Notes: generated by a model from the sequence alone, not told the origin. DNA of 64,000 nt from an uncultured Actinomycetota bacterium (GCA_963767885.1 CAVYFW010000003.1:218628-282627); one strand, 5' to 3'; counted from the stretch's first letter, positions 1-64,000 are shown. Program-made: numbers and translations.

Positions 1-1110
1 TGGAGCTCGGCGTCTCCGGCTTCCGCGTCGACGCCGTCCCGTTCTTCCTGGAGACGGCCGGCGATCGCGGACGGCGACCGGACCTCGCCCGACCCGCACG
101 ACTACCTCCGCGAGCTGCGCGCGTTCCTCGGCCGCCGCAGCGGCGACGCCATCCTGCTCGGGCGAGGTCAACCTGCCGCACGCGGACCAGCGGCGCTTCT
201 TCGGCGGCGACGGACGGCGACGAGCTGACGATGCTGTTCGACTTCATCGGGATGCAGAAGCTGTACCTGTCGCTGGCCCGGCGGCGACGCCGCGCCCGCT
301 GGCCGAGGCCCTGCCGCCGCGGCCGCGGATCCCGCACGACGTCGCAGTGGGCGACGTTCGTGCGCAACCACGACGAGCTGACGCTCGACAAGCTCACCGA
401 CGACGGAGCGGCAGGAGGTGTTCGCCGCCTTCGGCCCGGACCCGGACATGCAGATCTACGGCCGCGGCCTGCGCCGCCGGCTGCCGCCGATGCTCGGACG
501 GCGACCCGCGCCGCATCCGGATGGTCTACAGCCTGCTGTTCTCGCTGCCCGGCACGCCGGTGCTGTTCTACGGCGAGGAGATCGGCATGGGCGAGAACCT
601 CGCCGCCGAGGGTCGCATGGCGGTGCGCACGCCGATGCAGTGGACGCCGGGCCGCAACGGCGGCTTCTCGACCGCGCCGCCGTCGCGCGCTGGCCGGCCC
701 GGTGACCGAGGGCGGGTTCGGCCCGGAGCACGTGAACGTCGAGGACGCAGCGGCGCGACCCCGACTCGCTGCTCTCCTTCGTGCACGCTGCTGGTCCGCC
801 GCTACCGCGAGTGCCCGGAGCTCGGCTGGGGCGAGCTTCGAGGTCCTCGACCAGCCGCACCCGGCGGTGCTCGCCCACCGCTCGCACGTGGGACGACGCG
901 TCGACGGTCGCCCTGCACAACCTGTCGGCCGAGCGCGGCGCACGTGCCGCTGCGGCTGGACGACTGCGACGAGGAGACGCGGCTGGTCGACCTGCTGGTG
1001 GACGGCATCACGCACGCTCGACGCGCGCGGCCGGGTCGAGATCGCCGCTCGACGGCTACGGCTACCGCTGGCTGCGGGTGGTGCCGGCGGGCAGCACGCT
1101 GCTGGCGTAG
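1..1110 (+). pseudogene. GH13 alpha-amylase-family enzyme, trehalose-synthase-like, 3' part (5' end outside window); frame broken roughly ten or more times
   Basis: Family motifs are scattered over all three + frames: GFRVDAVPFFLE (from nt 3), MLFDFIGMQKLYLSLA and FVRNHDELTLDKLTDD (ORF 231..), LFSLPGTPVLFYGEEIGMGEN..RTPMQWTPGRNGGFS (ORF 347..), FGPDPDMQIYGRGLRRRL (ORF 418..), LDGYGYRWLRVV then stop at 1108-1110 (ORF 781..1110). Confidence 0.8.
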
Positions 1111-1127
1111 CGCGGCGGGCCCTACGG

Positions 1128-1427
1128 CTAGCGGTGGTCATCGAGCACGATCTCGTGCCACGTCTCGGAGTGTCCGCCGGCCTCGGCGCCCTCGAGCGCC
1201 TCGCGGGTCTCCTGGAAGCCGGGGCTGTGGTGCCACGCCTCCCAGTCCTCACGGCGCTCCCACGTGCCGATGACGACCCGCTCGTCGCCGTCTTCGACGG
1301 GCGAGCCGAGCTGCACGGCGATCCAGCCGGGCTGGTCGCGAACGCTGGCGATGCGTCGGCGGAAGGCGGCGTCCCAGGCCTCCTCCTGCCCGGGCCGCAG
1401 GCGCACGCGGGTGACGACGGTCATCAT
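1128..1427 (-). CDS. Antibiotic-biosynthesis-monooxygenase (ABM/Dabb) domain protein, 99 aa
   Basis: Intact ORF. The sequence VTRVRLRPGQEEAWDAAF..WIAVQL..VVIGTWERREDWEAWHHSP is typical of the ABM fold. Confidence 0.75.
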   Translation of the reverse strand: MMTVVTRVRLRPGQEEAWDAAFRRRIASVRDQPGWIAVQLGSPVEDGDERVVIGTWERREDWEAWHHSPGFQETREALEGAEAGGHSETWHEIVLDDHR

Positions 1428-1498
1428 GGCTGCCTCGATTCGCTCGGCGGACGGGAGTTGGCTTCCCGGACCGGCCCGGGGTTAGGCATCGGAGCGCC

Positions 1499-2150
1499 TC
1501 AGCTCCCGGCCCGCAGGTACGCCAGCACCGCCAGCACGCGGCGGTGGTCGTCGGTCGACTGCTCGAGCCCGAGCTTGCGGAAGATCTGCCCCACGTTCGC
1601 CTCGACGGTCTTCGGGCTCAGGTAGAGAGCGCGGCAGATCGCGGCGTTGCTGCGCCCCTCGGCGAGCAGGGCGAGCACCTCGCGCTCGCGCTCCGTGAGC
1701 TCGTCCAGCGGACCCGCCTGCCGCGCGCGCTTGCACGAGCCGCGAGACGATCGTCGGGTCGATCACGCACTCGCCCTCGTGGATGCGGCGCAGGGCGTCC
1801 GCGATCACCGCGACGTCCGACACGCGGTCCTTCAGCAGGTAGCCGACCCGCTCCGGCGCCTCCTCCAGCAGGCGCGTCGCGTAGCGCGACTCCAGGTACT
1901 GCGAGAGCACGAGCACGCCGACGGTCGGGTACGCGGCGCGGATCGCCTGTGCCGCCGCCAGGCCCTCGTCGGTGTGCGTCGGCGGCATCTTGATGTCGAC
2001 GATGGCGACATCCGGGCGGCGCAGCTCGACCCGCCGCAGCAGGCCCTCGGCGTCCTCGGCCGTTCCCACCACCTCGAAGCCCGCCTCGACGAGCAGACGG
2101 GCCAGGCCCTCGCGCACCAGCACCGAGTCGTCGGCGATCACGAGCCGCAC
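1499..2150 (-). pseudogene. NarL/LuxR-family response regulator (REC + LuxR HTH), one frameshift near 1725
   Basis: The receiver (VRLVIADDSVLVREG..PDVAIVDIKMP..VLVLSQY..YLLKD) is in the frame of ORF 1482..3857. The HTH (LTEREREVLALLAEGRSNAAICRALYLSPKTVEANVGQIFRKLGL..AYLRAGS, stop at 1499-1501) is in another frame. The GTG start at 2150 (or 2141) overlaps the kinase stop at 2138-2140. Confidence 0.85.
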
Positions 2151-3857
2151 GGGATCTCCGCGCGGATCGTGACGGCGCCGCCCGCCGCACGGGCCACCGC
2201 CAGCGACCCGTCGAGCGCCAGGATGCGATCCTCCAGGTCGAGCAGGCCGTCGGGCTCCGCGGCTGCCTCCACCTCGACGACCAGCACGCCGTCGCGCTGC
2301 GCGGCCGTCACCTTCGCCGGCCCGGCCCGCGACGCCGCCGCGACGACGAGGTACGCCGCCGTCTCGGCAGCCGGCGGGAAGCGGCCCTCCGGGGCGCCGA
2401 GGATGCGGAGCGGGGTCGACGCGCCCTCCGACAGCGACTCGAACGCCGCCGCCGCGCCCTCGTCGGTCAGCACCGCGGGGTGGATGCCGTGCGCGAGCTC
2501 GCGCAGCTCGTCGACCGCCAGGCGGAGCTCGGCCTCCGCCGCCGCGAGCCGCGCCACCGCCTCGGGGTCGGCGTCGCCGAGGCGCCCCCGCAGCAGCCGG
2601 AGGGCCAGCGCGAGCGAGACGAGCCGCTGCTGGGCGCCGTCGTGGAGGTCGCGCTCCAGGCGCCGGCGCTCGGCGTCGCCGGCCTCGACGATGCGCGCGC
2701 GCGACGAGCGCAGCTCCGCGAGCTGCGCGCGCGCCTGCGCCTGCAGCCGCTCGTGCTCCAGCGCCAGGCCCGCGGCCGCGGCCACGTCCTGGACGCGCTC
2801 GGCGCGATCGGCCAGGCCGGGGTCGTGGAGCAGGACGGCGACCGTGCGGCCGTCCCGGACGAACGGCGTCGCCACCCGGTCGGGCCGCGCGTCGAGCACG
2901 ACGGGGCTGCCATCGGCCGCCGCGAAGCGGCCGTCGCCGACGGGGTACGCGACCTCGATGTCGGGTTCGCCGAGCGCGTCCGCGAGCCCGCGTCGCAGCC
3001 CGCCGGCGGACGCGGGGCCGCCCAGCTGCACGACCAGGCCCGCGACGCGGCGGCGCGTGTGCCGCGACTCCAGCAGGCCCCAGCCGACCGCCAGGCCGAG
3101 CCCCGACAGGGCCGCTGCCTGGCCGAGCCACAGCCGGCGCTCCAGCTCGCCGTTGCCGACGAACGCCTGGTCGAGGTTGGCGGCGAACGTCCACGCGACC
3201 AGCGCGAGGTAGGCACAGCCAGTCAGGACCACGGGGCCGACGACCCGGCGCCGGCCGGGGCGCGAGCGCGCGAGCCGCCACGCGGCGACGCCGGCGAGCA
3301 GGACGGCCGAGGCGAGCCCGAGCCACATCCCCGGCCCGGCCCAGCCGGTCGACGAGGTCCGCGTCGCCGTGCACCAGCAGCAGGTTGTCGGGGCACTGGC
3401 TGCACCCCTGAGCGGCCGGGTCGTACGCCAGCGCGGGCAGCACGCCGAGCACGAGCAGCCCGGTCGCGAGCGCCACGGCGACGGCCGCCCGCTCGAGCGG
3501 TGCGTGCAGCCTGCCGTCCGGGTACGCCAGCAGCGCCCAGCCGGCGAGCGCGGGGCACACGGCGCCGAGCGCGAGCCCGATCGTGAACACGACCGGCGAC
3601 CCGACTCCCGGGTTGTCCCACTCGGCGACGAACCAGGCGGCGCCGGTGAGCGCGAGCAGCGGCCCGACGGCGTTGCCGGGACGGCGCAGCGCGAACGCCG
3701 CGCCGCTCGCGATCAGGGCCCAGCCGGCGACGCAGAGCGCGAGGGAGGCGGCGAACGACCCACCCGCCGGCGAGTACGCGGGCGTCGCGCGGGCGACCGC
3801 GAGCGAGTACCCACCGAGCACGAGCCCGACCGCCGCGAGCGGGATCGTCAGCCGCAT
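2138..3857 (-). pseudogene. Membrane sensor histidine kinase, HisKA_3 family (HK1): H-box present, HATPase motifs degenerate; one frameshift near 3330-3350
   Basis: The N-terminal multi-pass sensor (MRLTIPLAAVGLVLGG.. from ATG 3857) is in the frame of ORF 1482..3857. The cytoplasmic part is ORF 2138..3328 with H-box ERDLHDGAQQRL. The C-terminal domain lacks the N, G1 and G2 boxes (YLVVAAASRAGPAKV..VEVEAAAEPDGLLDLEDRI). Confidence 0.85.
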
Positions 3858-3907
3858 GTGGCCATCGTCTCATACGGCACGCGTCCCGCCGCGGTGCTGC
3901 CCTTGCA

Positions 3908-3925
3908 CCGGACCAGGGCTAGCCC
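3908..3925. promoter_or_regulatory. Shared 18-nt motif CCGGACCAGGGCTAGCCC (palindromic core GGGCTAGCCC) in the HK1 / DctP-like divergent intergenic region
   Basis: Its reverse complement matches 17 of 18 nt with 7928..7945, upstream of the second two-component module. A second shared 10-mer, TGTGGAGCCG, lies at 3961..3970 (its complement is at 7918..7927). Confidence 0.35.
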
Positions 3926-4016
3926 CATGCTTGGCGGCAGCTGTCGAGGGGGCGCCCCGATGTGGAGCCGGAGCACCGGGCCTAGCGTCGAGGCGACCCA
4001 CGACAGGAGGTGCCCG

Positions 4017-5901
4017 ATGCAGTCCAGAAGCGTTCTCCGTCTCGCGGCGGCGACGGTCATGACCAGCCTCGTCCTCAGCTCGGCCGGCTGCGGCGACGCC
4101 ACGAGCGGGAGCGGCGACAAGGCCGGCGGCGAGGATCCGGCGCAGCCGCGCGTCCTCACGCTGGCCAGCCAGACCGGCATCCCAACGCAGATCGAGGCGT
4201 TCGCGAGGGAGGTCCAGAAGCGCTCCAACGGAACCCTCACGATCCGCTTCGAGGACGGCTGGCGCCACGGCGAGAACGGCTACGAGCAGGCCGTGCTCGA
4301 CGACCTCAAGGCAGGCAAGGTCGATCTGGCGTGGGTCGGCGCGCGCGCGTTCGACATGGTCGGCGCCGACGACTTCCAGGCACTGCTCGCCCCGCTCCTC
4401 GTCGATAGCTACGACCTCGAGGGGCGTGTCTTCGCCGCCGGCATCCCCGCGCGGATGCTGGCGGGCGTCGACGTCCCCGGCGTCGTCGGGCTCGGCGTGC
4501 TGCCCGGCCCGATGCGCAAGGTGCTCGGCGTCTCCGAACCGGTCGTAGGCCCCGACGACTTCGCGGGCCGGGTCGTCGGCCTCTCGGACGGCGGCGTGGC
4601 GCGGCAGACGCTGGAAGCGCTCGGTGCGACACCGAGGCCGCTGCCGGCGGAGGCGAAGCTCGACGGGCTCGACGCGTTCGAGCAGCAGATCTCGTCGATC
4701 GCCGGCAACTCGTACGACCAGGGCGCCACCGCGGTCACCGCCAACCTCAACATGTGGCCGCGTCCGCTCGTGCTCGTGACCGGCAAGGATCTGCTCGCGT
4801 CGCTCTCGCCGGACGCAGCAGGCCGCGCTCCGCGACGCGGGCGCGGCGACCGTGGACGAGGCGCTCGCGCTCACGAAGGCCGACGAGGCCGAGTCGGCTG
4901 CGATCCTCTGTCGGCGCGGGCTCACCTTCGCGACGGCGTCGGCCGGTGACCTCGCGGCGCTGCGCACCGCGGTCGAGCCGGTGTACGCGAGCCTCTCGGC
5001 CGACCCGGCGACGAAGGCCTACCTGGACGAGATCGCTGCGCTGAAGCAGCAGGTCGCCGCAGGCGCCGACGCGTCCCCGTGCGACGCCTCGTCCTCGACG
5101 GCGGCCGCGGCGACGATCCCGGACGGCCGCGACTCGTCGAAGGACGCGACGATCGACGGCGTCTACCGCACGACCATCAGCCGCGAGGAGCTCGAGTCGA
5201 CGCCCCTGCTGCTCGCCGCCGACGAGGTCAACGACATGAACTGGGGCGACATGACCTTGACGCTCGCCGACGGGCGCGCGACCTGGGAGCAGGCGAACGA
5301 CCTCGCGCACTTCTCGACCTCGGGCACCTACGAGGTCGACGGCGATGCGATCAGGCTCGCGTTCAGCGAGGGCGAGGTGGCCGGCGAGCAGTTCGCCGCC
5401 CACTGGAGCCTGTACCACGACACGCTCACGTTCACCCGCGACGACGAGCTCGGCGTCCTCCCAACGCCGTTCCTGCTGGAGCCGTGGCAGCGCAGCGACG
5501 CGCTGGCGGACGACTCGGACGCCGCGGTCGCCGCGCCAACGCCGATCGACGGCACGTGGGAGTACACGACGACCAAGGCGGACTTCCCCGACGAGCCGAA
5601 CATCGACGAGGAGAACTACGGCTTCTACCGCTTCGTGCTGGACGGCGGCCACTTCGAGATGACGCAGAAGAACGGCCCGTCCGACCGCTGGACGCGGGGC
5701 AGCTACACGGTCACCGGCGACACCGTCGAGTTCGAGGTCGAGGACTACGGCGGCGACGCGCCCAACGGCGCGATCGAGAAGACCGGCGAGCTCTTCGCGT
5801 TCGCGTGGAGCCTCTACCGCGACACGCTCACGATGGGGCCGGTGCCGGGCGCCATCTCGCCCGAGAACTTCACGGCGAAGCCGTGGACTCGGGTCGAGTA
5901 G
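4017..5901 (+). pseudogene. Lipoprotein: TRAP-type (DctP-like) solute-binding domain fused to a tandemly duplicated C-terminal domain; one frameshift near 4812
   Basis: RBS ACAGGAGG precedes ATG 4017, and there is a lipobox LVLSSAGC. The DctP-like body (LTIRFEDGW..LKAGKVDLAWVGARAF..GLGVLPGPMRK..FAGRVVGL) is in ORF 3369..4949 and continues in ORF 4852..5901. The C-terminal region has two similar modules ending WSLYHDTLTF and WSLYRDTLTM. Confidence 0.75.
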
Positions 5902-5948
5902 CCGCGGCCGCGTGGTAGCACGGTAGGGGGCGGCCGGCGCGCCGCCCC

Positions 5949-7530
5949 CTACGGCTGCCCGGACGCCGGGATGCGCGCCTCGAGCTCGGTGCCGCCCGCC
6001 CCGGCGGCACGCACGGCGAGGCGGCCGCCCAGCGCCTCGACCCGGTCGGCGAGCCCCCGCAGCCCCGAGCCCGACGGGTCGGCGCCGCCCCGGCCGTCGT
6101 CCGTGACGGTCACGACCACGTCGCCGTCGACCACCTCCACGAGCACGCTCGCGCGGGTCGCGCCGGCGTGCTTGGCGACGTTCGCGAGCGCCTCCGAGCA
6201 GACGAAGTACGCGGCGGCCTCCACCGCGGGCGTCTGGCGTTCGACGGCGACGTCGAGCTGGACGGGCACCGCGGATCGCGCGGCCAGCTCGGGCAGCGCC
6301 GCGGCCAGCCCGCCGTCGGCCAGCGCGCGCGGCCGGATGCCCTGCGCGAAGTCGCGCAGCTCCCCGCGGGCGCCGCGCAGCTCGTCCTCGACGGCCGCGA
6401 ACAGCGGATCCGAGGGGCCGTCCACCCCCTCGTGGGCCGTTGCGACGAGCTCCTCCACGCGGGCCAGGCGCCGCTCCGCGCCGTTGCGGAGCTCGCGCTC
6501 GATGCGCCGCCGCTGGGCATCGCCGGCCTCGACGATGCGGCGGCGCGAGGCGGCGAGCTCGAGCACGCGCTCGCGCACGTCCGCCTGCAGCCGCGCGTTG
6601 GAGAGCGCGAGCCGCGCCGCGGCGGCGACCGACTCGATCAGCGCCGGGTCGGCCAGGACCGCCTCGTCGTGGACCAGCACCGCGATCGGCACGCCGTCCT
6701 CGGCGAGCCGGGTGACGGCCCGGCCGGCGCCCGGCTCGGGGATCTCGACCGGGCGCCCGGCATCGTCGACGTACCGCTCCTCGCCGGGCAGGCGGTAGCC
6801 GACGACGAGCGAGCGATCGCCGAGCGCGCGGCCCAGCTCGTCCTGCAGGGTGCGCGTGTCGGAGCGCTTGCCGAGGTCGATGACGAGGCCGGCGACCACC
6901 GCCTCCGACCACCGCCCGCGCAGCAGGTCGACGCAGAGCACGACGGCCAGCGCCGGCGATGACGGCGTCGTACGTCCACAGCACGCCGCGGTCGGCGCCC
7001 CAGCCCGCGAGGCGGTCGACGGCGCCCAGCGCCAGCACCCCCGCGTACGCGAGGGCCGCTGCCAGCGCGGGCACGCCCGCCCGGCGCGCGGGTCCCGACG
7101 CGCGTGCGTACCCCTCGATCGCGGCGGCGGCGACCAGTGCGGCGAGCGCGAGCGTCAGCGCGTCGTCGCGGGCGAACGGCTCGACGATCGCATCGACGTA
7201 CGCGAGCACCACGGTGGCGAGGGCCAGGCGGCGCAGCAGGCGCCCGGTCGGGTACGAGATGTGCACGTGGACGAGCGGCCCGCGGTGCAGGTAGAGCGCC
7301 GCGGGCCAGAAGTTGCCCGCGAACCAGGTGAAGCCGGCGAGCGCCATCAGCGCGCCGATGCGGCTCTCGGGCCGTCGCTGCCACGCGACGACGCCGCAGG
7401 TCACCAGCACGCAGCCCACGACGCCGTCGGCGATGAGCAGCGGGAGGTCGCCGCCGTGGTACGACCTCCACTCGGCCGCGACGGCGACCGCGACGGCCAG
7501 CGGCACGAGCGCGAGTCGCAGCGCGCGCAC
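5949..7530 (-). pseudogene. Membrane sensor kinase paralogue, HisKA_3 family (HK2): intact HATPase motifs but H-box His-Asp replaced by Arg-Asn; one frameshift near 6942-6960
   Basis: The N-terminal membrane part starts at ATG 7530 (MRALRLALVPLAVAV.., ORF 4747..7530). The cytoplasmic part is ORF 5949..6941. The H-box position reads ERELRNGAERRL. N box SEALANVAKHA, G1 TDDGRGG and G2 GSGLRGLADR are all present. Confidence 0.85.
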
Positions 7531-7533
7531 GCG

Positions 7534-7890
7534 CTACCGGGGGGCGAGCGCGGCGAGCGCGGCCCCGCTGAGCTCGCTCTTGGGGATGAAGCCCCGCGCG
7601 AGGCTGCGCTGCAGCCGCCGGCGGTAGGACGCCGGGTCGCGGCTCGACGTCAGCACCACCGAGGGCCCGCCGGCGCCGCCGGTGAGCGCGTCGCACACGG
7701 CGAAGCCGTCCATGTCGGGGAGGGCGACGTCGAGCAGCACGAGCTCCGGCCCCAGCCGCGCCGCCTCGGCGATCGCGGACGCGCCGTCGTGCGCTTCGCC
7801 GACGACCTCGAATCCCTCGGCCTCGAGCAGCGCACGGGCGAAGGACCGGAACCCGGCGTGGTCGTCGACGATCAGGACGGTCGCCGCCAC
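7534..7890 (-). CDS. Stand-alone receiver (CheY-like) response regulator, 118 aa
   Basis: GTG start at 7890. Receiver signature: VLIVDDH, LVLLDVALPDMDG, VVLTSS, FIPK. No output domain. It ends 4 nt before the HK2 start. Confidence 0.85.
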   Translation of the reverse strand: MAATVLIVDDHAGFRSFARALLEAEGFEVVGEAHDGASAIAEAARLGPELVLLDVALPDMDGFAVCDALTGGAGGPSVVLTSSRDPASYRRRLQRSLARGFIPKSELSGAALAALAPR

Positions 7891-7927
7891 ACGGTGATCG
7901 TGGCAGGCGGCGGGGCGCGGCTCCACA

Positions 7928-7945
7928 GGGCTAGCCCTGGACCGG
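7928..7945. promoter_or_regulatory. Second copy of the shared motif (GGGCTAGCCCTGGACCGG) inside the 14-nt perfect palindrome CAGGGCTAGCCCTG
   Basis: Lies about 40 nt upstream of the receiver gene start (7890), in the intergenic region divergent from the secreted-protein gene at 8049. Confidence 0.35.
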
Positions 7946-8048
7946 CGGGAGCGGCGCACGGACCCTGCACAGCGCTTCCACACCGGGTCGCCGCACCCTC
8001 CTCGTACGGCGCTGGCAGGGAGCCGGCGCACCGACCAAGGAGTGGGGA

Positions 8049-8654
8049 ATGTCCGACACGGCCACCACCACCAGCGTTCGCGCCGCACGCCTCCGGCGCT
8101 CGTCCGCCGGCCGCCTCCTGCGGCGCGTGGCGCTCCCGGCGCTGCTCGCCACGGCCGCCCTCGTCGCGGCGGCGCCCGCCGGGGCCGTCACGACCACGGT
8201 GTCCAAGGGCGTCCCCGGCAAGGCCGCCAGGCCGCCGGTCTACGGCACGTACGGCGCCAACGGCGACTCCGTCATCACCGTGCCCTGGCGCCGCGTGACC
8301 GAGTCCCGGCGGTACGCCCGCTACGACCAGTGGGTCTGCGTCACGCCGCGCCTGTACCACGCCTACACGCCGGACTGGGGCACGCCGGACTGGGTCCTGG
8401 ACTCGAAGTCGACCAGCTGCGCGTGGATCGCGGCGGGCGCGAGGTACGCCGACATCGACGGCGTCGACTTCACCGGCCCTGTCGGCCTGTTCGGCTACGG
8501 CGTGGACGTCGTCGTGACGTGGTCGCTGAGCAACGGCAGGGTCATCGGCAAGCGCGTCTACGACTACGACCTCCAGAGCGACTACGTGTGCCAGAACGGC
8601 GGCTGCTACACGGGCGACGGCGTCCTCGGCGGGTTCGTCATGATGGACTTCTAG
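8049..8654 (+). CDS. Secreted hypothetical protein, 201 aa, four Cys
   Basis: RBS AAGGAG precedes the ATG. Arg-rich n-region plus hydrophobic signal (RLLRRVALPALLATAALVAAAPAGA). Intact, with a non-repetitive mature sequence. I recognise no family. Confidence 0.7.
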   Translation: MSDTATTTSVRAARLRRSSAGRLLRRVALPALLATAALVAAAPAGAVTTTVSKGVPGKAARPPVYGTYGANGDSVITVPWRRVTESRRYARYDQWVCVTPRLYHAYTPDWGTPDWVLDSKSTSCAWIAAGARYADIDGVDFTGPVGLFGYGVDVVVTWSLSNGRVIGKRVYDYDLQSDYVCQNGGCYTGDGVLGGFVMMDF

Positions 8655-8660
8655 GTCGTC

Positions 8661-8680
8661 GCGTCCGGGGCTCCGGACGC
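8661..8680 (+). terminator. Candidate stem-loop terminator GCGTCCGG-ggct-CCGGACGC
   Basis: Perfect 8-bp stem with a 4-nt loop, starting 7 nt after the stop of 8049..8654. No U-tract. Confidence 0.35.
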
Positions 8681-8838
8681 GGGACGGGCCGTCGGCTCGT
8701 CGGGTGCGCGTCACCCGCGAGCCGGCGGCCCTTCGCGCGTTCCGGCCGGCGCCGGCCGGTCCATCGCATCCCCGCGACCCGGCTCCGTAAGCTCTGGCGA
8801 CCCCGGCGGTTCCACGGTCAGACAACCGGAGGTCCTCC

Positions 8839-11800: not shown

Positions 11801-11920
11801 GCGGGCGGGCTGAAGGTGAACGCCCGCCGCGCGGCCCTCCCCTACGGCCCGGGCGGCGCGACGACCGCGCTGGGCCGCCAGCTCGTCGAGCGGGCGCTGA
11901 CGTGGGCGGCGGCGGGGTGA
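8839..11920 (+). pseudogene. Large secreted right-handed beta-helix protein with two CSLREA / choice-of-anchor-Q-like modules and a distinct C-terminal domain; one frameshift near 10083
   Basis: Signal peptide MRLAALTTALLASLLALAGTAGA. Module 1 has GNGECRTAGGVCTLRAAVREA..DQRGIVRLRCDIGALE (ORF 8839..). Module 2 has TCATAGGACTLRAAVQEAN..DQRGAARPQGPAADSGAVEG (ORF 10085..11920). There are many G-rich beta-helix turns. An extra g after GGCGACGGT breaks the frame. Confidence 0.8.
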
Positions 11921-53072: not shown

Positions 53073-53077
53073 CTGCG

Positions 53078-54306: not shown

Positions 54307-55457
54307 CCGCTCCCCTCCTCTGAGAGTGGTTCCGCACTGTCGCCCGCGGTCGCGAAGGCCGGCGGGACGACGAGCTCACGGGGCAGCGAGGAGATGATCG
54401 TCGGCTCGCCGTCCGTGACGACGACGACGTCCTCGATGCGAATGCCTCCGATGCCGGCGGCGTAGATGCCCGGCTCGATCGTCAGCACCGTGCCCGCCGC
54501 CATGGGCGCGTCGCCGCGCGGCGTCAGGAACGGCGGCTCGTGCACGTCGATGCCGATCGCGTGGCCGGCGCCGTGCAGGCACGCGCCGAGCTCCGGCGAG
54601 GCCTCGACGACCGTGCGCTGCGCCGCGTCGACGTCGCGGCCCGTGGCACCGGCGCGGGCGACCTCGATCGCGCGGGTCTGCGCCTCCATGACGACGTCCC
54701 AGGCGGCCCGCGCCCACTCGCTCGGCTCGCCGGCCGACCCGCAGCGCGTGAGGTCGGCCCAGTAGCCGTCGATCTGCGCCGAGATGTCCGCGCAGATCAC
54801 CTCCCCACGGCGCAGCTGACGCGCGCCGGGCTTGCCGTGCGGGTTGGCGGCGTTGGCGCCGAACAGCACGAGCGCGTGCGCGTCCGTGGCGCCGGCCTCG
54901 CGCAGCAGGTTCGACACCTTGGCGTTGACGGCGTGCTCGACGTCGCCCTCCCCCAGCTCGTCGAACATCCGCGCCATCACGCGCTCGACGATGTCGACGG
55001 CGTGGCGGATGCGCTCGATCTCGGCGGCGTCCTTCGCCTCGCGCAGCGCCATCAGGATGCGACCTGCGGGCCGCAGCTCCTTGCCGGCGGCGGTCAGCGC
55101 CAGCGCGCGTCCGTAGACGAGGTGGTCCTCCTCGACGCCGACGGCCGCGCCCTCGCCGAGCGCGGCCACGACGTCGGCCATGCCGTCGGACGACGCCGGG
55201 TAGACGACGCGCTCGAAGCTGCGCGGGACGTCGGCGATGGCCTCGGACTCGAGGTGCGGCACGACGATCGTCGGGCGGCCGCGGACGGGCACGGCGACGG
55301 CGAAGAGGCGCTCGAGCTGGATGCTGGAGAACCCGGTCAGGTACGCGATCGAGGCGTCGCTCGTCGCCAGCACGGCCTGGAGGCCCGCATCCGCCGCGGC
55401 GCTCCGCACCGCGTCGAGACGTGCCTCGAACACTCCCGTTGCAGCGGCGTCGCTCAT
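54303..55457 (-). CDS. M24-family Xaa-Pro peptidase (creatinase-like N-domain + metal-dependent pita-bread domain)
   Basis: Metal-ligand contexts ICADISAQIDGYWADLTR, HGAGHAIGIDVHE, TIEPGIY, IRIEDVVVV. Intact 384 aa. Its stop overlaps the SBP start (ATGA). Confidence 0.9.
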   Translation of the reverse strand: MSDAAATGVFEARLDAVRSAAADAGLQAVLATSDASIAYLTGFSSIQLERLFAVAVPVRGRPTIVVPHLESEAIADVPRSFERVVYPASSDGMADVVAALGEGAAVGVEEDHLVYGRALALTAAGKELRPAGRILMALREAKDAAEIERIRHAVDIVERVMARMFDELGEGDVEHAVNAKVSNLLREAGATDAHALVLFGANAANPHGKPGARQLRRGEVICADISAQIDGYWADLTRCGSAGEPSEWARAAWDVVMEAQTRAIEVARAGATGRDVDAAQRTVVEASPELGACLHGAGHAIGIDVHEPPFLTPRGDAPMAAGTVLTIEPGIYAAGIGGIRIEDVVVVTDGEPTIISSLPRELVVPPAFATAGDSAEPLSEEGSG

Positions 55458-55512
55458 CGGCCGATTCCAGAATCGACGGAATCTACGGGCAGCGGCAGGA
55501 ATTGAGCCGCGC

Positions 55513-55878
55513 TCACGACGCCTCCGCCTCGACCGCCAGCACGACGTCGTAGACCGCGCCGCGCACGGCCGCGTCGAAGTCGCCTTCGACGAGCTCTGCG
55601 AGCATCGGCCGGGTCGCCTCCCGCAGCGGGTTCGCGAGCCACCCCTCGTAGGCGCCGGCGTCGCGCCAGAGCGCCGTCACGAGGATCGGCGCACCCGGCT
55701 CGCGCGGCACCTGGAGCTCTGCCGACAGGCAGCCCTCCTGTCGCAGCGCGGTCTCGAGGATCTCCTCTCGACGGTACAGACCGACGATGTCGTCGCTGCC
55801 GCCCGCGCGGGGCGGCAGGTAGAGAACGCTGCGGATCAACGCCGGCTCGCTTCCGGGTCGGAATTCCTGTTCGCGCAT
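55513..55878 (-). CDS. Small ABM/Dabb-like protein, 121 aa (tentative)
   Basis: ATG 55878 inside ORF 55513..56061. ILVTALWRDAGAYEGWLANPLRE resembles ABM-domain proteins. It lies between hyuB copy 3 and the M24 gene. Confidence 0.55.
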   Translation of the reverse strand: MREQEFRPGSEPALIRSVLYLPPRAGGSDDIVGLYRREEILETALRQEGCLSAELQVPREPGAPILVTALWRDAGAYEGWLANPLREATRPMLAELVEGDFDAAVRGAVYDVVLAVEAEAS

Positions 55879-55948
55879 CCTACTTTCAAACCAACAGGAA
55901 TCGCAAGGGGCGGCGACCCCGTCCCGTCGGTCGCTGTCGCGATCCCGG

Positions 55949-57634
55949 TCACCGGCCGTCCCAGCCGTACGTCGAGCGCGCCTGCTCGCGGCTGACGACG
56001 CCGTCGCGCACGTCGCGGGCGATCGCCTCCTGCTGCCGCTCCGCCGGATCGCCGTAGCCACCGCCGCCGCCCGTCAGCCCGCGGATCACGTCGCCCCGCC
56101 CGACCCGTAGCCGCGCGGCCTTGAGCAGGTGGCGCTCGTCCTCGCGGCCGGGGTTGACGACGACGTCGGGCCCGGCGCCGTCAGCGCCCCCGGCGAGGCC
56201 CCAGGCGGGCGTGCGCGAGCGCTCCCACCAGAGCGACACGTACGCCTCCTCGCAGTCGAAGGCGAACTCGCGGATGACGCCGTGGCCGCCGCGGAACCGT
56301 CCCGCTCCGCCCGAGTCCGGACGGATGCGGTACTCCGTCATGCGCATCGGCAGGCGCGTCTCGAGCACCTCGATCGGCAGGTCCTTCATCCCGGCGTTGA
56401 CGCTGTTGATGAGCGCGCTCTCGCCGTCGCCGGTCGACCACCCGCCCCAGCCGCCGGTCGTCGGCTCGATGTGGAAGAAGCCGCCACCCGTGCGGTGGTC
56501 GAGGCCGGCGACCATGAAGATCATGGAGTCGCCGTAGCTCGCCGCCGCGGCTCGCTCCGGCAGCACCGGGGCGAGCGCCTTGACGACGAGGTCGATGAGC
56601 AGGCCGAGCGGCGTGAAGTACCAGGCACACGGCGCCGGCGCCTCGGCGGCCAGCACGGAGCCGCGGCGCACGCGCACCTCGAGGGCGCGGAAGGAGCCGC
56701 CGTCGGTGGGCCGCGCGGGGTCGACGAGCAGCTTGAAGGCGACGCGGCAGGCGGAGATCGCCTGCGCCTCGCCGCAGTTCACGGGCCCGCCGCGCAGGTC
56801 GCTGGACTCGCCCAGGTCGACGATCATGCGGTCGCCGGCGACCTCCACGCGCACGCGCACCCAGACGGGCTCGCCGAGGCGGATGCCGTCGTCGTCGAGA
56901 CAGCCCTCGGCGGTGTACACGCCGTCGGGGATCGCCGCGACGATCTCCCGCTCGAGCCGCTCCGTCTGCTCGTAGATGCGGTCGCGCGCGGCGGTCACGG
57001 TCGGCATGCCGAAGCGGTCGATGATCGCGCCGAGCCGCTGCTCGCCGATGCGCACGCAGGCCATCTGCGCCTGCAGGTCGCCGAGCATCGGCTGCGGGAA
57101 GCGGGAGTTGCGCGACAGCAGGTCGAGCATGTCGCGGCGGGGCACGCCGCCCTCGACGAGCCGCGTCGGCCCGAGGCGCAGGCCCTCCTGGAAGATCTCC
57201 GTGGAGTCCATGGGCGCGCCGGGGTCCTTCGCTCCGACGTCGAGCCAGTGCGCGCGCGAGGCCGCGAAGCCGACGAGGGCCTCGTCGTGGAAGATCGGCC
57301 CGAAGACCGTGACGTCGTTGAGGTGGGTGCCGGCGAGGTAGGAGTCGTTCATGATCCAGACGTCACCGGGTCGCCACGCCTCGCGGCCGTACCACTCCTC
57401 CGTCAGACGCGTGCAGATCTCGAGGTTGCCGAGGAAGATCGGCAGGCCGGACGACTGGCCGAGGACGCGGTGGTCGGCGTCGAGCAGCGCGACCGAGCAG
57501 TCCTTCAGCTCGTAGATGATCGGCGTGTACGCGGACCGGATCAGCCCGGCGTTCATCTCGTCGGCGGCGGACGAGAACGCGCTCCGGATCACCTCGGTGG
57601 TGATCGGGTCGACGGCGATGCTGGTGGCGGCCAT
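55949..57634 (-). CDS. hyuB: Hydantoinase B / oxoprolinase family subunit, copy 3, intact (561 aa)
   Basis: Uninterrupted ORF. DPITTEVIRSAF, NDSYLAGTHLNDV, GGWGG, GGGGYGDP. Confidence 0.9.
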   Translation of the reverse strand: MAATSIAVDPITTEVIRSAFSSAADEMNAGLIRSAYTPIIYELKDCSVALLDADHRVLGQSSGLPIFLGNLEICTRLTEEWYGREAWRPGDVWIMNDSYLAGTHLNDVTVFGPIFHDEALVGFAASRAHWLDVGAKDPGAPMDSTEIFQEGLRLGPTRLVEGGVPRRDMLDLLSRNSRFPQPMLGDLQAQMACVRIGEQRLGAIIDRFGMPTVTAARDRIYEQTERLEREIVAAIPDGVYTAEGCLDDDGIRLGEPVWVRVRVEVAGDRMIVDLGESSDLRGGPVNCGEAQAISACRVAFKLLVDPARPTDGGSFRALEVRVRRGSVLAAEAPAPCAWYFTPLGLLIDLVVKALAPVLPERAAAASYGDSMIFMVAGLDHRTGGGFFHIEPTTGGWGGWSTGDGESALINSVNAGMKDLPIEVLETRLPMRMTEYRIRPDSGGAGRFRGGHGVIREFAFDCEEAYVSLWWERSRTPAWGLAGGADGAGPDVVVNPGREDERHLLKAARLRVGRGDVIRGLTGGGGGYGDPAERQQEAIARDVRDGVVSREQARSTYGWDGR

Positions 57635-59674
57635 CAGGCCTCCTTCCCGATCCGCATCAGCAGCGCCCCGAGGGCATCCACCACGAGCGTGGTGCCCGGC
57701 GGGACGACCGTCGTCGCGGTCTGCTCGTTGACGATGGCCGGCCCGTCGACCGCGGTGCCGGGGGCGAGATGGGAGCGCTCGAGGATCTGCGTGTCACGCG
57801 GGGCGCGGCCGAAGACGGCGGCGCGGCGAGGGGCGCTGCCGTTGCCGGAGACGACGTCGGGTGGCGCCGGTGCGGCGCGGCCGAGGTCGCCGAGCGCCGT
57901 CGTGCGGACGACCACGAGCTCGACGGGCGCGCCGGGGTTCGCGTGCCCGTAGCGGGTCTCGTGCGCGTGGTGGAAGCGCTCCTCCAGGCGGTCGAGGAAG
58001 GCGTCGCGCTGCGGGTCGTCGGCGCCGTCGATGGGGATCGTCAGCGTGTACTCCTGGCCCACGTAGCGGACGTCGACCGGCATGCAGCAGCAGCCGCGTG
58101 TCGGCCGGCACGCCCTCCCGATCGAGCGCTGCGACGCCGTCGCCCTCGAGCGCGGCGCACGCGGCGGCGAGCTTGTCCAGCGGCGCCTCGCGCGCGACGG
58201 CGTAGAACGGCTGGCTGAAGTCCTGGCGGATCTGCGTCTGCAGCATGCCCCAGGCGGAGAACGCGCCCGGGTCGGCCGGGACGATGACCTCCGCGATCTC
58301 GAGCTCGCGGGCGAGGAAGGCGGCGTGCATCGGGCCGGCGCCGCCGAACGCGACGAGCGAGAAGTCGCGCGGCTCGATGCCCTGCTCCACCGTGAGCGTG
58401 CGGATCGCCTGCGCCATCCGCGCGTTGATGACGTCGAGGATGCCCTCGGCCAGCTCCTCCACGCCGAGTCCGAGCTCGCCCGCGAGGTCGGCGACCGCGG
58501 CGCGGGCCGCCCCGACGTCGAGCGTCATCGTGCCGCCGGCGAAGTGCTCCGGGTCGACGCGGCCGAGCACGAGGTTCGCGTCCGTCACGGTCGGCCGCGT
58601 CCCACCGCGGCCGTAGCAGGCAGGGCCCGGGGCGGCCCCGGCGCTCTCCGGGCCGACGCGGAGCCCGCCGGCCTCCGAGCGAGCCAGCGAGCCGCCGCCC
58701 GCGCCGATGGTGTGGATGTTGACGATGCTCATGAGCAGCGGGAAGCCCTCGAGCGAGGTCTCCGAGGCGACGTCGGGCTGTCCGTCGACGACCAGCGAGA
58801 CGTCGAACGAGGTGCCGCCCATGTCGATGCCGATGAGGTTCGGGCGCTGCAGTGCCTCCGACAGCGCGACGAGCCCCATGGTGCCGCCGACGGGTCCGGA
58901 GAGCAGCGTCTGCAGCGGCCGGTCGCGCGCGCTCTCCGCGGTGAGGATGCCGCCGTTCGACTGCATCACGTGGAGCGGCACGGCGAGGCCGCGGTCGCGC
59001 ATCTCGTCCTCGAGCCGCCGCAGGTAGCGGCGGACGACGGGTGCCGTGTAGGCGTCGAGCACCGTCGAGGCGGTGCGCTCGTACTCGCGCCACTCCCGTG
59101 CGACGCGGTGCGAGAGCGAGACGGGCACCTCGCCCAGCTCCTCGCGCAGGATCTCCGCCGCGCGCAGCTCGTGGGCCGGATCGACGTAGGAGAAGAGGAA
59201 GGCGATCGCCACGGAGCCGAAGCCCTCGTCGCGCACCCGCTGCGCCGCCGCCCGGATCGCCGCCTCATCGAGCGGGGCGAGCTCCTCGCCGGTGTAGGTG
59301 AGGCGACCGGGGATCTCGACGATGTCGCCGAGCGGGACGAGCGGCTCGGGCTTCTCGTAGTGCAGGTCGTAGAGGCGGTGGCGGTCGCCGCGCGCGATGT
59401 GGTAGACGTGGCCGGCGCCGGCCGTGGCGAGCAGCAGCACACGCTCGCCGCGGCGCTGCAGGAAGGCGTTCAGCCCCTGCGTCGTGCCGTGCACCGTGAA
59501 GTCGATCTCGGCGGGGGAGTCGATCACCTGCGCGAGTCCCGCGAGCACGCCCTCCGCGAGGTCGTGGGGGGTCGTGGACGACTTGCCGGCGGCGTAGCGG
59601 CCACGCTCCGTGTCGTAGGCGACGACGTCGGTGAACGTGCCGCCGATGTCCATCGAGACCCTGTACGCGCCCAT
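57634..59674 (-). pseudogene. hyuA: Hydantoinase A / oxoprolinase family subunit, copy 3; single frameshift near 58085
   Basis: ORF 57794..59674 (MGAYRVSMDIGGTFTDVV..) carries about 530 good residues. The C-terminus VDVRYVGQEYTLTIP..LMRIGKEA is in ORF 57634..58083. RBS AGGAGG precedes ATG 59674. Confidence 0.9.
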
Positions 59675-59785
59675 CCGGCCTCCTACTCGCCGTTCCGCTC
59701 CTGCTTGATGACTCCCGGCAGAAGAGGAAGGGCACTGCCGCGAGATCCCGGATTCGAGCTGTGCATTACTCCCTGGGTGAAGATA

Positions 59786-61999: not shown

Positions 62000-63004
62000 T
62001 CAGAGCGAGATCGTCGTTCCGACCGCGCTCTGCACGAACGCGTCGGGGAACCGGCGCGCAAGACGGTGCACCGCTTTCCAGCCGGTGCAGTGGGCCGGCA
62101 TCAGCAGCCCGGGCTGGAGATCGTCGAAGGCCGCGACGGTCGGTTCGATGATCGGCTCGAACATCGGTCCGCTGAGGTGGAAGCCGCCGATCACGGCGGC
62201 GATGCGCGTCTCGCCCGTGAGCCGCTGCGCGTGCCGCACGACGTTGATGATCCCGGCGTGCCCGCAGCCGGTGAGGACGACGAGCCCGCGCTCGGCGAGG
62301 CGCAGCACGATCGCCTGGTCGTCGAGGATCAGCGGGTCGGGCTCCCAGCGATCGCGAACGTGCGCCTCGTGTCCCAGGAAGCCGGTCTCGAACGGCGTCG
62401 TGCGATCGACCTCGCCTGTCACGAGCAGCGACCCGTCGAGCAGGAACGACGGTTGCTCGTCCTCGACGATCTCGAAGCCGACGCCCTCGAGTGCGGCGCG
62501 GCTGGTCGCGGGCAGCTCGGCCGGCTCGAGGCCCGGAATGGCGATCCGGCGACGCCGCCAGAAGGCAGGATGGATGAGCACGGGGAGGTTGACGCGTCCG
62601 AGCTCCCTCGCGATCCCCTCCATCCCGGCGACGTGGTCCCAGTGGCCGTGGCTGAGCACGATCGTCTCGATCTCGCTCGGCGAGAGCTCCAGCCGGCGCA
62701 TGTTCTCGACGACACCGGTCGGCGTGACGCCGGCATCGAAGAGGATCGTCCGCTCGCGGCCGCCGGTCGTCACGCGAACGAGCGCCGAGAAGCCCGGCTG
62801 GGCGATCAGCGCATCGGGCAGGCCGTCGTCGGTGAGAGCGGAAGCTGCGCGTGGCTTCGCGAGGTGGTACAGCCAGGTCGTGCGCCCGACCTGCTGCGTG
62901 GGGAACAGCAGAGGGTCGGTCACGTTGTCCATCAGGATCGTGATCCGGACGGCGTCGACCGGGGCGAGCGGAACGGCGGCCATGGCCACCGCCAAGGATG
63001 CCAC
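62000..63004 (-). CDS. MBL-fold metallo-hydrolase
   Basis: LSHGHWDHVAGM, TGCGHAG, plus other beta-lactamase-fold motifs; intact 334 aa. Confidence 0.85.
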   Translation of the reverse strand: MASLAVAMAAVPLAPVDAVRITILMDNVTDPLLFPTQQVGRTTWLYHLAKPRAASALTDDGLPDALIAQPGFSALVRVTTGGRERTILFDAGVTPTGVVENMRRLELSPSEIETIVLSHGHWDHVAGMEGIARELGRVNLPVLIHPAFWRRRRIAIPGLEPAELPATSRAALEGVGFEIVEDEQPSFLLDGSLLVTGEVDRTTPFETGFLGHEAHVRDRWEPDPLILDDQAIVLRLAERGLVVLTGCGHAGIINVVRHAQRLTGETRIAAVIGGFHLSGPMFEPIIEPTVAAFDDLQPGLLMPAHCTGWKAVHRLARRFPDAFVQSAVGTTISL

Positions 63005-63055
63005 AGCGCCGCCGACTGGAGTCCGCGAGTCGACAGCCTCGACGGCGGATTGCCG

Positions 63056-63794
63056 TCAGTTGATCTCGGCGATCTCCGCGGCTAGCTCGATAGCCACGGT
63101 CTCATCGATGTTCGGCCCGCTGAGCGACCACCGACGCTTCCCGTCGATCCAGACGAGGGTGGTGTTCCCGCCGAGGTCCTGGCCGTAGAAGCCAGGTTGC
63201 CCATCGATCGTTCACCTGGTGGACGCACGTACAGCTCTCGTCAAGGGACCGGAACGAGCCCACCTCTTCGTCGACGGGCATCGCTCGCTCGCTGACCAGA
63301 GCGGCGTTCGCGACTCCTCGCTGCTCGTGCAGGAACGCCGCGACTCGTCCCTCCGGGTGGGCGGTAACGACCTCCGGCACGACCCCGGCGGGCAGCCGGA
63401 ACGTCGTGCCGGCCGCTCGCGCCGCTCCCTTCGGCGTCTCGAACGTCCGTGCGCTCCCGCCTTCCACCCAGGCACGAACCTCTAAGGGACTACGCGTATC
63501 GGGCGCGACCGTCAAGACGTCGTCGCCGCCGCAACCAGTGAGCCCTGCAGCCGCTACCGCCAGCGCACCAACGACCCGTCGAGCGCCACGACGCGCGGCC
63601 CGCGGGCACGCTTCGGTGTGGTTGACGATCCGCACCTCGGCGAAGTGCCACTGCGTCGGGTACGCACCTTGCCAGTGCCCCTCGCGCACGAGGAGCCGGG
63701 GACGCCGAGCACGTTCGAGGACGACTGCGAGAAGGCCGAGCACGAGGCCGGCCGCGCCGCTCCCGAACCCGACGACCCGCCACGCCTCGCCCAT
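63056..63794 (-). pseudogene. Hypothetical lipoprotein-like protein, one frameshift near 63205; start uncertain
   Basis: Lipobox-like VVGALAVAAAGLTGC lies inside ORF 63102..63827. The C-terminus IDGQPGFYGQDLGGNTTLVWIDGKRRWSLSGPNIDETVAIELAAEIAEIN is in another frame, stopping at 63056-63058. No in-frame start sits directly before the signal peptide. Confidence 0.4.
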
Positions 63795-63842
63795 GTGCGC
63801 ATTGTGACGGACGCTCGGGGAGCGCACGCCCGCCGCGGCGGC

Positions 63843-64000
63843 TCAGGCGCCGTGGAGCGCCTGCATGTTCGCGCTGCATGATCGCCTCGACCGGGGCCAG
63901 CTGCTCCGCCGGGCTGAAGATGACGAACTCGGTGCCGGCCTCGGTGAACGGCGTGTGGCCCGGGCGGCACGTAGAACGCGTCGCCGGCCTCGTAGACCTC
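63843..64000 (-). pseudogene. Cupin-domain protein, C-terminal part only (runs off the window), two apparent frameshifts
   Basis: EVYEAGDAFYVPPGHTPFTEAGTEFVIFSPAEQLAPVEAIMQ..NMQALHGA can be read only by switching frames at a CCCGGGCC run and near 63860. Confidence 0.45.

Follow-up and report, generated by a model that had tools for sequence, protein, structure and literature searches.

The window, here meaning the whole 64,000-nucleotide stretch of DNA that was analyzed, contains three hyu modules, a set of ABC transporter genes, two peptidase genes, two regulator genes, and the end of a GH13 enzyme gene, along with other genes. Frame switches were called with a reference-free, 7-state codon-usage Viterbi procedure trained on the intact genes of the window, and only robust, same-strand switches away from stop codons were counted. 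Homology-based counts come from our own frameshift-aware protein-versus-DNA alignment to homologues. The relatives compared include an independent, Flye-named metagenome contig (L005), which has 93.4% nucleotide identity to the window over 11.8 kb, and five contigs from short-read assemblies (L001, L002, L006, L007, and L008).

The Viterbi procedure identified 98 frame switches in the window, 77 of which fall inside three zones that make up 18% of its length. Zone 1 (1-1110) has 13 switches (11.7 per kb), zone 2 (40780-44126) has 24 (7.2 per kb), and zone 3 (47006-54000) has 40 (5.7 per kb). The remaining 52.5 kb contains 21 switches. The zones have 6-12 switches per kb and the rest of the window has 0.4 per kb (p about 1e-28); counts in 2-kb bins are likewise overdispersed (chi-square, p=7e-29). 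The uneven frameshift density described in the original prediction was borne out, with clustering stronger than was stated there, and its count of at least 23 genes with frame corrections fits our count of about 24. Within the three zones there is one surplus base per about 70-130 bases. The spacing of events inside the zones is exponential (CV 0.92-0.94, KS p 0.36-0.95), indicating random placement.

Zone 1 covers the C-terminal fragment of a GH13 enzyme (1-1110, plus strand), composed of the alpha-amylase catalytic end and a SupH-like C domain. This fragment contains 13-16 frame switches, where 10 or more had been predicted, and 12-14 of them are insertion-type. The stitched protein matches PF00128 and PF22157. 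The left edge of zone 1 lies beyond the window start.

Zone 2 covers most of the first hyu module. The hyuB copy 1 gene (40355-42048, minus strand) contains 13 one-base insertions, no deletions, and no stops. The insertions are at about 41673, 41561, 41443, 41319, 41249, 41200, 41163, 41090, 40981, 40917, 40880, 40828, and 40779, the first of these being the extra C near 41670 relative to copy 3 that had been noticed earlier. The final ~425 nucleotides ahead of the stop codon are insertion-free in the nucleotide alignment to L005. HyuB1 is 92.3% identical in amino acids to the intact L005 orthologue over 559 residues. The hyuA copy 1 gene (42088-44124, minus strand) has 26 shifts (23 of +1 and 3 of +2) and no stops, and its product is 74% identical to the corrected HyuA3 over 665 residues. 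The first module had been credited with two dozen breaks; the actual number by homology alignment is about 39.

Zones 2 and 3 are separated by an insertion-free interval of 2,953 nucleotides (44054-47006). It contains the first 72 nucleotides of hyuA1, two HTH/cupin regulator genes (44367-45419, plus strand), an M20 peptidase gene identified by its Pfam matches (45474-46754, minus strand), intergenic sequence, and the last ~215 nucleotides of hyuB2. No extra bases are present in this interval, versus about 22 expected at the local rate.

Zone 3 begins in hyuB copy 2 (46783-48466, minus strand), which has 15 +1 shifts and no stops when aligned with HyuB of the short-read contig L008, and 17 extra bases relative to L005. 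It is followed by hyuA copy 2 (48488-50559, minus strand), with 24 shifts (20 of +1 and 4 of +2), no stops, and 90.3% identity to the intact L005 HyuA2 over 680 residues. At least one of the +2 shifts consists of two insertions 3 nucleotides apart (50008 and 50011). The ABC permease (BPD_transp_2; 50568-51538, minus strand) has four +1 shifts and 94.4% identity to the intact L005 permease. The ABC ATPase (51534-53031, minus strand) contains two ABC_tran domains and nine +1 shifts, located at 52659-51769, and its first ~370 nucleotides are shift-free. It is 63% identical to the ATPases of L008 and L006, and the shifts are identical with either reference. The periplasmic substrate-binding protein (SBP) gene (53089-54310, minus strand) has two +1 shifts (53907 and 53468) relative to the L008 Peripla_BP_4 protein and forms the tapering upper edge of the zone. 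These per-gene counts confirm the dozens of breaks predicted for hyuAB copy 2 and the ABC genes.

Beyond zone 3, the M24 peptidase gene of the creatinase/prolidase type (54303-55457, minus strand), assigned by Pfam, is intact and has no shifts relative to the L008 M24 protein. The hyuB copy 3 gene (55949-57634, minus strand) is also intact, with a full-length PF02538 match in a single Viterbi frame, and served as the paralogue reference. The hyuA copy 3 gene (57641-59674, minus strand) contains one +1 insertion, placed near 58078 relative to the L005 HyuA2 and at 58085 by the Viterbi switch. Due to this insertion, the open frame at 57794-59674 is artificially truncated; the corrected protein regains a normal C-terminus. 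The six intervals that had been called uninterrupted (17210-19183, 26675-28756, 55949-57634, 45474-46754, 54303-55457, and 32765-34324) each have a single frame and full-length Pfam matches.

Insertion-type shifts also occur singly outside the zones, in unrelated genes across the window, at a background of about 0.3-0.4 per kb. One is at 4815 (plus strand) in a DctP-type solute-binding gene, where a single PF03480 match (residues 49-319) crosses the switch at residue 260. Another is in a gene for a 1,023-residue beta-helix protein (plus strand). The extra G predicted near 10083 was found here near 10085 (GGT-G-ACC), with the Viterbi switch at 10101, and a three-frame reading restores the internal repeat motif PGDG.C.TAGGACTLRAA. 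A DUF2252 gene has a shift at 29430 (minus strand), and its single PF10009 match, full-length on the profile (1-392 of 392), crosses the switch at residue 232. A luciferase-like monooxygenase gene has one at 30650 (minus strand), and its PF00296 match (residues 52-332) crosses the switch at residue 306. The event proposed near 63950 is also present (CCCGGGCC). At the G-run change proposed at about 34828 there is a GGGG run with a deletion-type switch.

The lesions are of nearly one kind. Over eight genes (hyuB1, hyuA1, hyuB2, hyuA2, permease, ATPase, SBP, and hyuA3), the frameshift-aware alignment gave 87 +1 shifts and 7 +2 shifts, with no clear deletions. No in-frame stops were found in these eight genes over more than 3,000 corrected codons, and no larger deletions were found in the corrected broken genes when aligned with homologues. 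Viterbi typing of the switches gave 86 insertion-type versus 12 deletion-type. The breaks had been described as 1-nucleotide indels. The one-base length was upheld, but the events are not indels generally; they are almost exclusively insertions.

Programmed ribosomal frameshifting, transcriptional slippage, or phase variation would account for the frame changes themselves and has nothing further in its favor. The 13-26 sites per gene share no common motif or slippery run, lie outside repeats, and differ in position between the window and L005. With so many sites in each gene and no site motif, this explanation is refuted, and its probability is negligible.

Decaying genes accumulate deletions of various sizes, at least as many as insertions, along with nonsense mutations, and they show relaxed dN/dS and a loss of codon bias. 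Such a mixed lesion spectrum was not found in the broken genes, and the signs of relaxed selection (dN/dS toward 1, conserved residues hit) were not found either. After removal of the extra bases, dN/dS is 0.21-0.32 in the broken genes versus 0.42 in the intact M20 gene. Codon bias is not eroded, with a GC3 of 0.97-0.99 in the zones and 0.94-0.97 in intact genes. Of 291 columns with at least 97% conservation in a set of 120 homologues, the corrected HyuB1 deviates in one, and intact homologues deviate in 0-5. Stitched proteins of the broken genes give full-length Pfam matches. Apart from the frame breaks, nothing in these genes points to decay.

Recent inactivation of redundant hyu copies was raised in the original prediction as the biological alternative; it would have to be very recent and would involve two hyu modules and their transporter. 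Redundancy is plausible with three hyu modules present, and heavy breakage is found in hyu modules 1 and 2 and the neighboring ABC genes but not in the M20, M24, and regulator genes, which are intact. The insertion-only spectrum, the lack of stops and larger deletions, the low dN/dS, and the intact conserved residues leave this alternative unsupported. The distribution of breaks also argues against it. Along a single operon, there are 11.6 breaks per kb in hyuA2, 1.6 per kb in SBP, and none in M24. This sevenfold difference within one operon, together with the end of zone 2 inside hyuB1, indicates that the zones ignore gene boundaries. Like events occur in isolation in unrelated genes, and the extra bases are unlike slippage products and match alleles of homologues. 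Decay in Mycobacterium leprae and in recent symbionts resembles the window in having many broken frames in one region with homology still recognizable; the window differs in lacking varied deletions, nonsense mutations, relaxed dN/dS, and loss of codon bias. Selective decay is very improbable.

Relatives carry the corresponding genes intact, which also speaks against the decay reading. In L005, hyuB1, hyuA2, and the permease are intact. This contig is broken elsewhere by the same insertion-type events, including in its Cpn60 (chaperonin) gene, with 35 switches in 21.7 kb (31 insertion-type versus 4 deletion-type by Viterbi). The five short-read contigs contain the same gene cluster in intact form, and the same procedure gave only 7 switches in 68 kb of their assemblies (0.1 per kb). 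The insertion signature tracks assembly type rather than lineage. The frame breaks are almost certainly some form of consensus or assembly artefact, as the original prediction had preferred on weighing artefact against gene decay; the lesion spectrum, dN/dS, GC3, conserved columns, and relatives all bear this out.

The identity of the extra base distinguishes between artefacts. It is unlike both of its neighbors in 73 of 94 events, where random insertion would give 46-55%. In 37 of 60 events it is a synonymous alternative of a neighbor (44% expected at random). Random insertion is rejected on neighbor identity (p=5e-10 to 6e-6) and on the synonymous alternative (p=0.006). Simulated tandem SNP alleles predict 72.6% unlike both neighbors and 69.7% synonymous alternatives, in agreement with both observed values. 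The synonymous-alternative signal fell from 24/32 to 37/60 as less reliably framed events were added.

The extra base was also compared with third homologues. At adjacent sites differing from L005, it equals the copy-3 base in 8 of 15 hyuB1 events and 14 of 31 hyuA1 events (chance 11% for both). In hyuA2, the extra base agrees with a Gaiellaceae MAG orthologue in 11 of 21 events (chance 17%). Combined, 33 of 67 events match (p about 1e-9). Extra bases in L005 are allele-like too (9/23 versus 11% by chance, p=4e-4). The extra base acts like a real allele of the site next to it. Roughly half of these bases have no third-homologue match; true SNP alleles behave alike, and there is room for some ordinary noise.

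Generic indel noise of unpolished long reads, with random errors surviving at very low depth, was the form of artefact originally proposed. Frameshift-causing long-read indels are a known problem, gauged by IDEEL-type tests and fixed by tools such as Kastor (PMC12007338; PMC13087279), and soil long-read assemblies of low coverage are reported to contain more frameshift errors (PMC13087279). The one-base events, their exponential spacing within zones, an extra-base composition equal to background, and the lack of a flanking motif at the insertions are consistent with such noise. As with published long-read indel errors, which are worse in low-coverage, high-diversity soil metagenomes, one-base length errors split well-conserved genes, the Flye-named contig is affected, and short-read relatives are spared. 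The published errors are deletion-biased and homopolymer-linked (PMC12007338), unlike those of the window, which are insertions only, are not accompanied by substitution noise (HyuB1, 1/291 columns), and avoid homopolymers, the opposite of the nanopore profile (PMC12007338). Of the 65 runs of at least 5 bases in the window, just 7 lie inside the zones, and with the extra base mostly unlike both neighbors, the breaks do not fall in homopolymers. GC-rich stretches, the suggested cause, do not explain the zones either; their GC is 0.71-0.75, no richer than the rest, and the GC-richest bins (0.78-0.79) hold one event each. Random noise could not produce the excess of homologue-allele matches, and this explanation is unlikely.

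A second possibility is that polishing wrongly drew reads of module 3 (hyuA3/hyuB3), a paralogue with 78-84% nucleotide identity, onto module 1, and that these reads supplied their alleles. In its favor, the extra base is the adjacent copy-3 base in 22 of 46 module-1 insertions. The other 24 have no copy-3 match, and in 6 of 15 hyuB1 events neither adjacent site distinguishes copy 3 from L005. The match of 48% is on a par with the rate for genuine window-versus-L005 SNP alleles, which match copy 3 in 37-46%. The window contains no close paralogue of zones 1 and 3, the allele signal persists in hyuA2 with an outside MAG, and copy 3 itself is nearly clean. Mis-recruitment is improbable.

The specific cause is probably a tandem-allele consensus from mixed, closely related haplotypes, judging from sequence comparison. 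At many of the sites where two such haplotypes differ by a substitution, the consensus would write both alleles side by side, adding exactly one base and shifting the frame. The window probably originates from a long-read metagenome assembly, and the haplotypes are probably co-occurring strains in that metagenome whose reads piled onto one contig. The polisher is the step presumed to be at fault. We reason that a likelihood polisher may treat a missing read base as cheap and a substitution as expensive, and so would prefer 'XY' where reads split between X and Y. We know of no published description of exactly such a tandem-allele error for a named polisher. The finding serves as a quality flag and is of low biological interest.

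Real recent insertions, from an unknown insertion-only mutational process acting in both the window strain and a sister strain, are extremely improbable. Such a process might be faulty repair in which recombination with a diverged homologue leads to copying of the alternative base. It would have hit hyu modules 1 and 2, the transporter, and the GH13 gene here and other genes in the sister strain, and its side-by-side alleles would amount to a new mutational signature.

Under the tandem-allele consensus, density would be uneven because the error is possible only where a second, diverged haplotype was co-aligned; nearly identical strains, or one strain alone, would give a clean consensus. Collapsed haplotypes or strain mixtures in assemblies of heterogeneous populations usually appear in descriptions as bubbles or mosaic substitutions. 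The window may resemble them in that errors would be limited to stretches where two diverged haplotypes are piled together, and it differs in keeping both alleles in tandem, with frameshifts as the result. The dS relative to L005 is 0.026 for M20 and 0.15 for hyuA2 and hyuB1, and the clean interval at 44054-47006 roughly corresponds to the tract where the window and L005 diverge least. Insertion density does not simply scale with divergence, since this interval contains about 60 mismatches to L005, yet no insertions. The segment at 51600-52113 also has low divergence from L005, yet contains two insertions.

G+C content is 70-79% across the whole window. At this G+C, all six frames contain open frames, so coding frames were judged by codon-position composition and homology rather than by ORFs. 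In a plot of third-position G+C, the frames are stable in most of the window and fragmented in 1-1110, 40.3-44.1 kb, and 46.8-54.3 kb. Frame switches were also called without references, using a Viterbi model with seven states (three frames per strand and non-coding), codon log-odds from seven intact window genes, and in-frame stops disallowed. A switch was counted only if it stayed on the same strand, the old frame was still open, and both flanks were at least 40 nt long. There are 98 switches that pass this filter.

The switches can be sorted into three dense zones and a sparse remainder. Zone 1 (1-1110, a GH13 gene fragment) has 13 switches, or 11.7 per kb. Zone 2 (40780-44126) has 24 (7.2 per kb) and zone 3 (47006-54000) has 40 (5.7 per kb), while the other 52.5 kb contain 21, or 0.4 per kb. 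The clustering claimed in the original prediction is confirmed by these densities and by a dispersion test in 2-kb bins (p=7e-29). The genes it described as uninterrupted are each single-frame with a full-length Pfam match, and the events it described near 41670, 10085, and 63950 were borne out on re-reading the sequence. Applied as a control to five short-read assemblies of relatives (68 kb at 70-72% G+C), the same model called 0, 3, 2, 2, and 0 switches, a rate of 0.1 per kb. Insertion placement within the zones is random, with exponential spacing (CV 0.92-0.94, means of 68 and 93 nt), which rules out regular spacing. The breaks of zone 2 end approximately 425 nt ahead of the hyuB1 stop codon.

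Plain tblastn with paralogues gave a similarity of only 40-56%. This is an underestimate because the alignments bridged the shifts, and a frameshift-tolerant protein-versus-DNA aligner was therefore written for the homology-based counts. Shifts of one extra base (+1) or two (+2) were counted in nine genes. The most affected are hyuA1 (23 +1 and 3 +2, against corrected HyuA3) and hyuA2 (20 +1 and 4 +2, against HyuA2 of L005, a syntenic relative contig from a Flye-named metagenome assembly). The remaining genes have only +1 shifts: 15 in hyuB2 (reference L008 HyuB), 13 in hyuB1 (L005 orthologue), 9 in the ABC ATPase (L008 and L006), 4 in the permease (L005 permease), 2 in the binding protein (L008), and 1, near 58078, in hyuA3 (L005 HyuA2). 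The M24 peptidase (L008) has none. The total is 87 +1 and 7 +2 shifts, and the frameshift-aware alignment of these nine genes contains no clear deletion and no in-frame stop. At least one +2 shift is in fact a pair of insertions, at 50008 and 50011, separated by 3 nt.

Outside the zones, insertion-type events again predominate among the isolated switches (17 of 21 in the Viterbi calls), and a single Pfam domain runs across the switch at 4815 (DctP), 29430 (DUF2252), and 30650 (luciferase-like). Only the switch near 34828, at a GGGG run, is a candidate homopolymer-linked or deletion-type event. Four short stretches, 34324-34830 (+), 24911-25987 (-), 11928-12375 (-), and 63000-64000 (-), each contain several close switches of mixed type; they could represent short genes, non-coding DNA, or minor clusters of errors. 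In hyuA copy 3 (57641-59674, minus strand), the seemingly intact open frame 57794-59674 carries the insertion near 58078 and finishes in about 95 out-of-frame residues. The true C-terminal domain is in the frame of ORF 57634-58083.

Recent inactivation of redundant hyu copies had been offered as the biological alternative. It is contradicted by dN/dS against L005, computed once the extra bases were removed (hyuB1 0.25, hyuA2 0.32, permease 0.21, ATPase part 0.29; 0.42 for the intact M20 peptidase), by third-position G+C of 0.97-0.99 in the zones, and by the retention of conserved residues. Of the 291 columns with at least 97% conservation in a set of 120 homologues, corrected HyuB1 differs from the majority at 1, and intact homologues differ at 0-5. 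Third positions hold 56-68% of window-L005 differences in the broken genes, like the clean stretch. Break density falls along one operon from 11.6 per kb in hyuA2 through 4-6 in the permease and ATPase and 1.6 in the binding protein to 0 in M24, a gradation unlike the neutral decay of a dead operon. The affected genes should be taken as intact, the breaks represent no biological feature, and the decay reading is not supported.

Ordinary long-read noise does not quite account for the breaks. The original prediction had tied them to extremely GC-rich stretches; the zones are no higher in G+C than the remaining window, which rules out G+C content as a driver. Homopolymers are ruled out as well: of 94 events, 73 have an extra base unlike either of its neighbours (random insertion gives 46-55%), and of the 65 runs of five or more bases in the window, just 7 fall in the zones. 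The composition of the inserted bases matches the background, and their flanking sequences contain no motif, methylation-like or other. In published profiles (PMC12007338), errors of nanopore assemblies are biased towards deletions and linked to homopolymers, unlike the zone events, which are insertion-only, non-homopolymer, and leave conserved residues unaffected. Frameshift errors are reported to be commoner in soil long-read assemblies (PMC13087279). The original preference for an artefact over decay stands, with another, more specific mechanism favoured.

The extra bases favour sites adjoining third codon positions. In the most reliable frames, 24 of 32 are synonymous alternatives of a neighbouring base, and 37 of 60 are overall, with 44% expected by chance. 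In a simulation built on real window-L005 substitutions, with both variants of a site kept side by side, 72.6% of extra bases differ from both neighbours and 69.7% are synonymous alternatives, in agreement with the data (p=0.30 and 0.21). The neighbour test (p=5e-10 to 6e-6) and the synonymous test (p=0.006) both reject random insertion. The C/G pair type of the extra base and its third-position neighbour does not tell the models apart.

As a direct test, the extra base was compared with the base of a third homologue at an adjacent site where L005 differs. With window copy 3 as the homologue, where 11% would match by chance, the matches are 8 of 15 in hyuB1 (p=8e-5) and 14 of 31 in hyuA1 (p=1e-6). 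When the homologue is a Gaiellaceae MAG orthologue taken from a short-read assembly, 11 of 21 match in hyuA2 (chance 17%, p=2e-4). The three sets together give 33 matches in 67 events (p about 1e-9). Genuine substitution alleles agree with copy 3 at 37-46%, and the extra bases therefore behave exactly like alleles. Reads mis-recruited from copy 3 cannot be the general source of the extra bases, as copy-3 support is absent for half of the module-1 events and zone 3 is without a close paralogue. Each break is thus probably a polymorphic site at which both alleles were kept side by side in the consensus.

Such tandem alleles would require reads of two related haplotypes on one contig, and breaks would therefore be expected only where a second, diverged haplotype co-aligned. 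A likelihood polisher for which deletions are cheap and substitutions expensive would, we infer, favour "XY" for split reads. A literature search for a named account of tandem-allele insertions returned only general descriptions of long-read frameshift errors.

L005 (ENA ERZ25039565, contig_61149) is syntenic with the window. The alignment of its positions 1-11683 to window 52113-40350 is 93.4% identical and has 142 gap openings, of which 94 are a single extra base in the window and 36 a single extra base in L005. In L005, hyuB1, hyuA2, and the permease are intact, and hyuA1, the start of hyuB2, a Cpn60 gene, and others are broken by like events at other positions (31 insertion-type and 4 deletion-type switches). 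Its hyuA1 has 17 +1 and 4 +2 shifts. Break positions shared with the window in hyuA1, 6 of 21 within 3 residues, are at about chance by our own estimate. L005's own extra bases show the same allele-like matching, in 9 of 23 cases against 11% by chance. In more distant relatives, short-read contigs have the same cluster intact (regulators, ABM, HyuA, HyuB, M24, binding protein, ATPase, permease, and second HyuA).

Window 44054-47006 (2,953 nt) has no extra base against L005, with about 22 expected at the average rate. This interval approximately overlaps the least-diverged tract, most bins having 1-8 mismatches per 250 nt. Insertion density is not strictly proportional to divergence, and haplotype balance or depth would presumably also matter under the tandem-allele mechanism.

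Once the extra bases are removed, the hyu modules, ABC transporter, and GH13 gene should be treated as intact, and claims of gene loss or redundancy-driven decay should not rest on their breaks. The biological weight is small and the data-quality weight greater: with about 100 extra bases in the window, a gene caller would give dozens of fragments and completeness estimates would drop. The signature (insertion-only, non-homopolymer, extra base equal to the alternative allele of the neighbouring site) is simple to screen for. It points to strain mixture at the consensus step and not to read accuracy, so a further round of polishing from those mixed reads may leave the insertions in place.

The closest HyuB1 relative among 5.8 billion proteins is the intact L005 protein (92% identical; next 86%), and stitched HyuB1 has hundreds of homologues at 80-86% identity. 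Nearest relatives of the hydantoinase-type genes are from soil metagenomes and MAGs labelled Thermoleophilia, Gaiellaceae, and Solirubrobacteraceae. Exact-protein look-ups of three intact window genes gave no match, and the M20 protein, scanned against genome and metagenome contigs, has relatives at up to 46% identity.

Three hydantoinase/oxoprolinase-type hyuA-hyuB modules lie in 40350-59700, each near an HTH/cupin regulator pair. The modules share the region with a sugar-type ABC transporter, an ABM-domain gene, and peptidases of the M24 and M20 types. Intact variants of this cluster are present in Gaiellaceae and other Thermoleophilia-like MAGs (L006, L007, and L008). The substrate-binding protein has, at about 54000-54200 (-), a long low-complexity N-terminal linker of repeated ATSEA/ATEEA-type units behind a lipoprotein-like signal sequence. 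Divergence from L005 (5300-7900) is much reduced at 44100-46900, where M20 has a dS of 0.026; the value is 0.15 for hyuA2 and hyuB1 on either side. This tract holds the two regulators and the M20 peptidase and could be a recent recombination tract or merely a strongly conserved core. L005 synteny stops exactly after the hyuB1 stop codon (window 40350), chaperonin fragments follow in L005, and an alpha/beta-hydrolase gene 20 kb away in the window (19794-20895) matches L005 14243-15348 at 87%, which indicates a probable rearrangement between the two. Of the third-position differences in 40350-52113, 78% (200/255) are C/G transversions, which fits a presumed strong pressure for G or C at these positions in the lineage. 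The gene at 8854-11927 (+) encodes a beta-helix protein, secreted and about 1,020 residues long, with an internal duplicated module, every copy of which opens with a motif like PG.G.C.TAGG.CTLRAA..EA.
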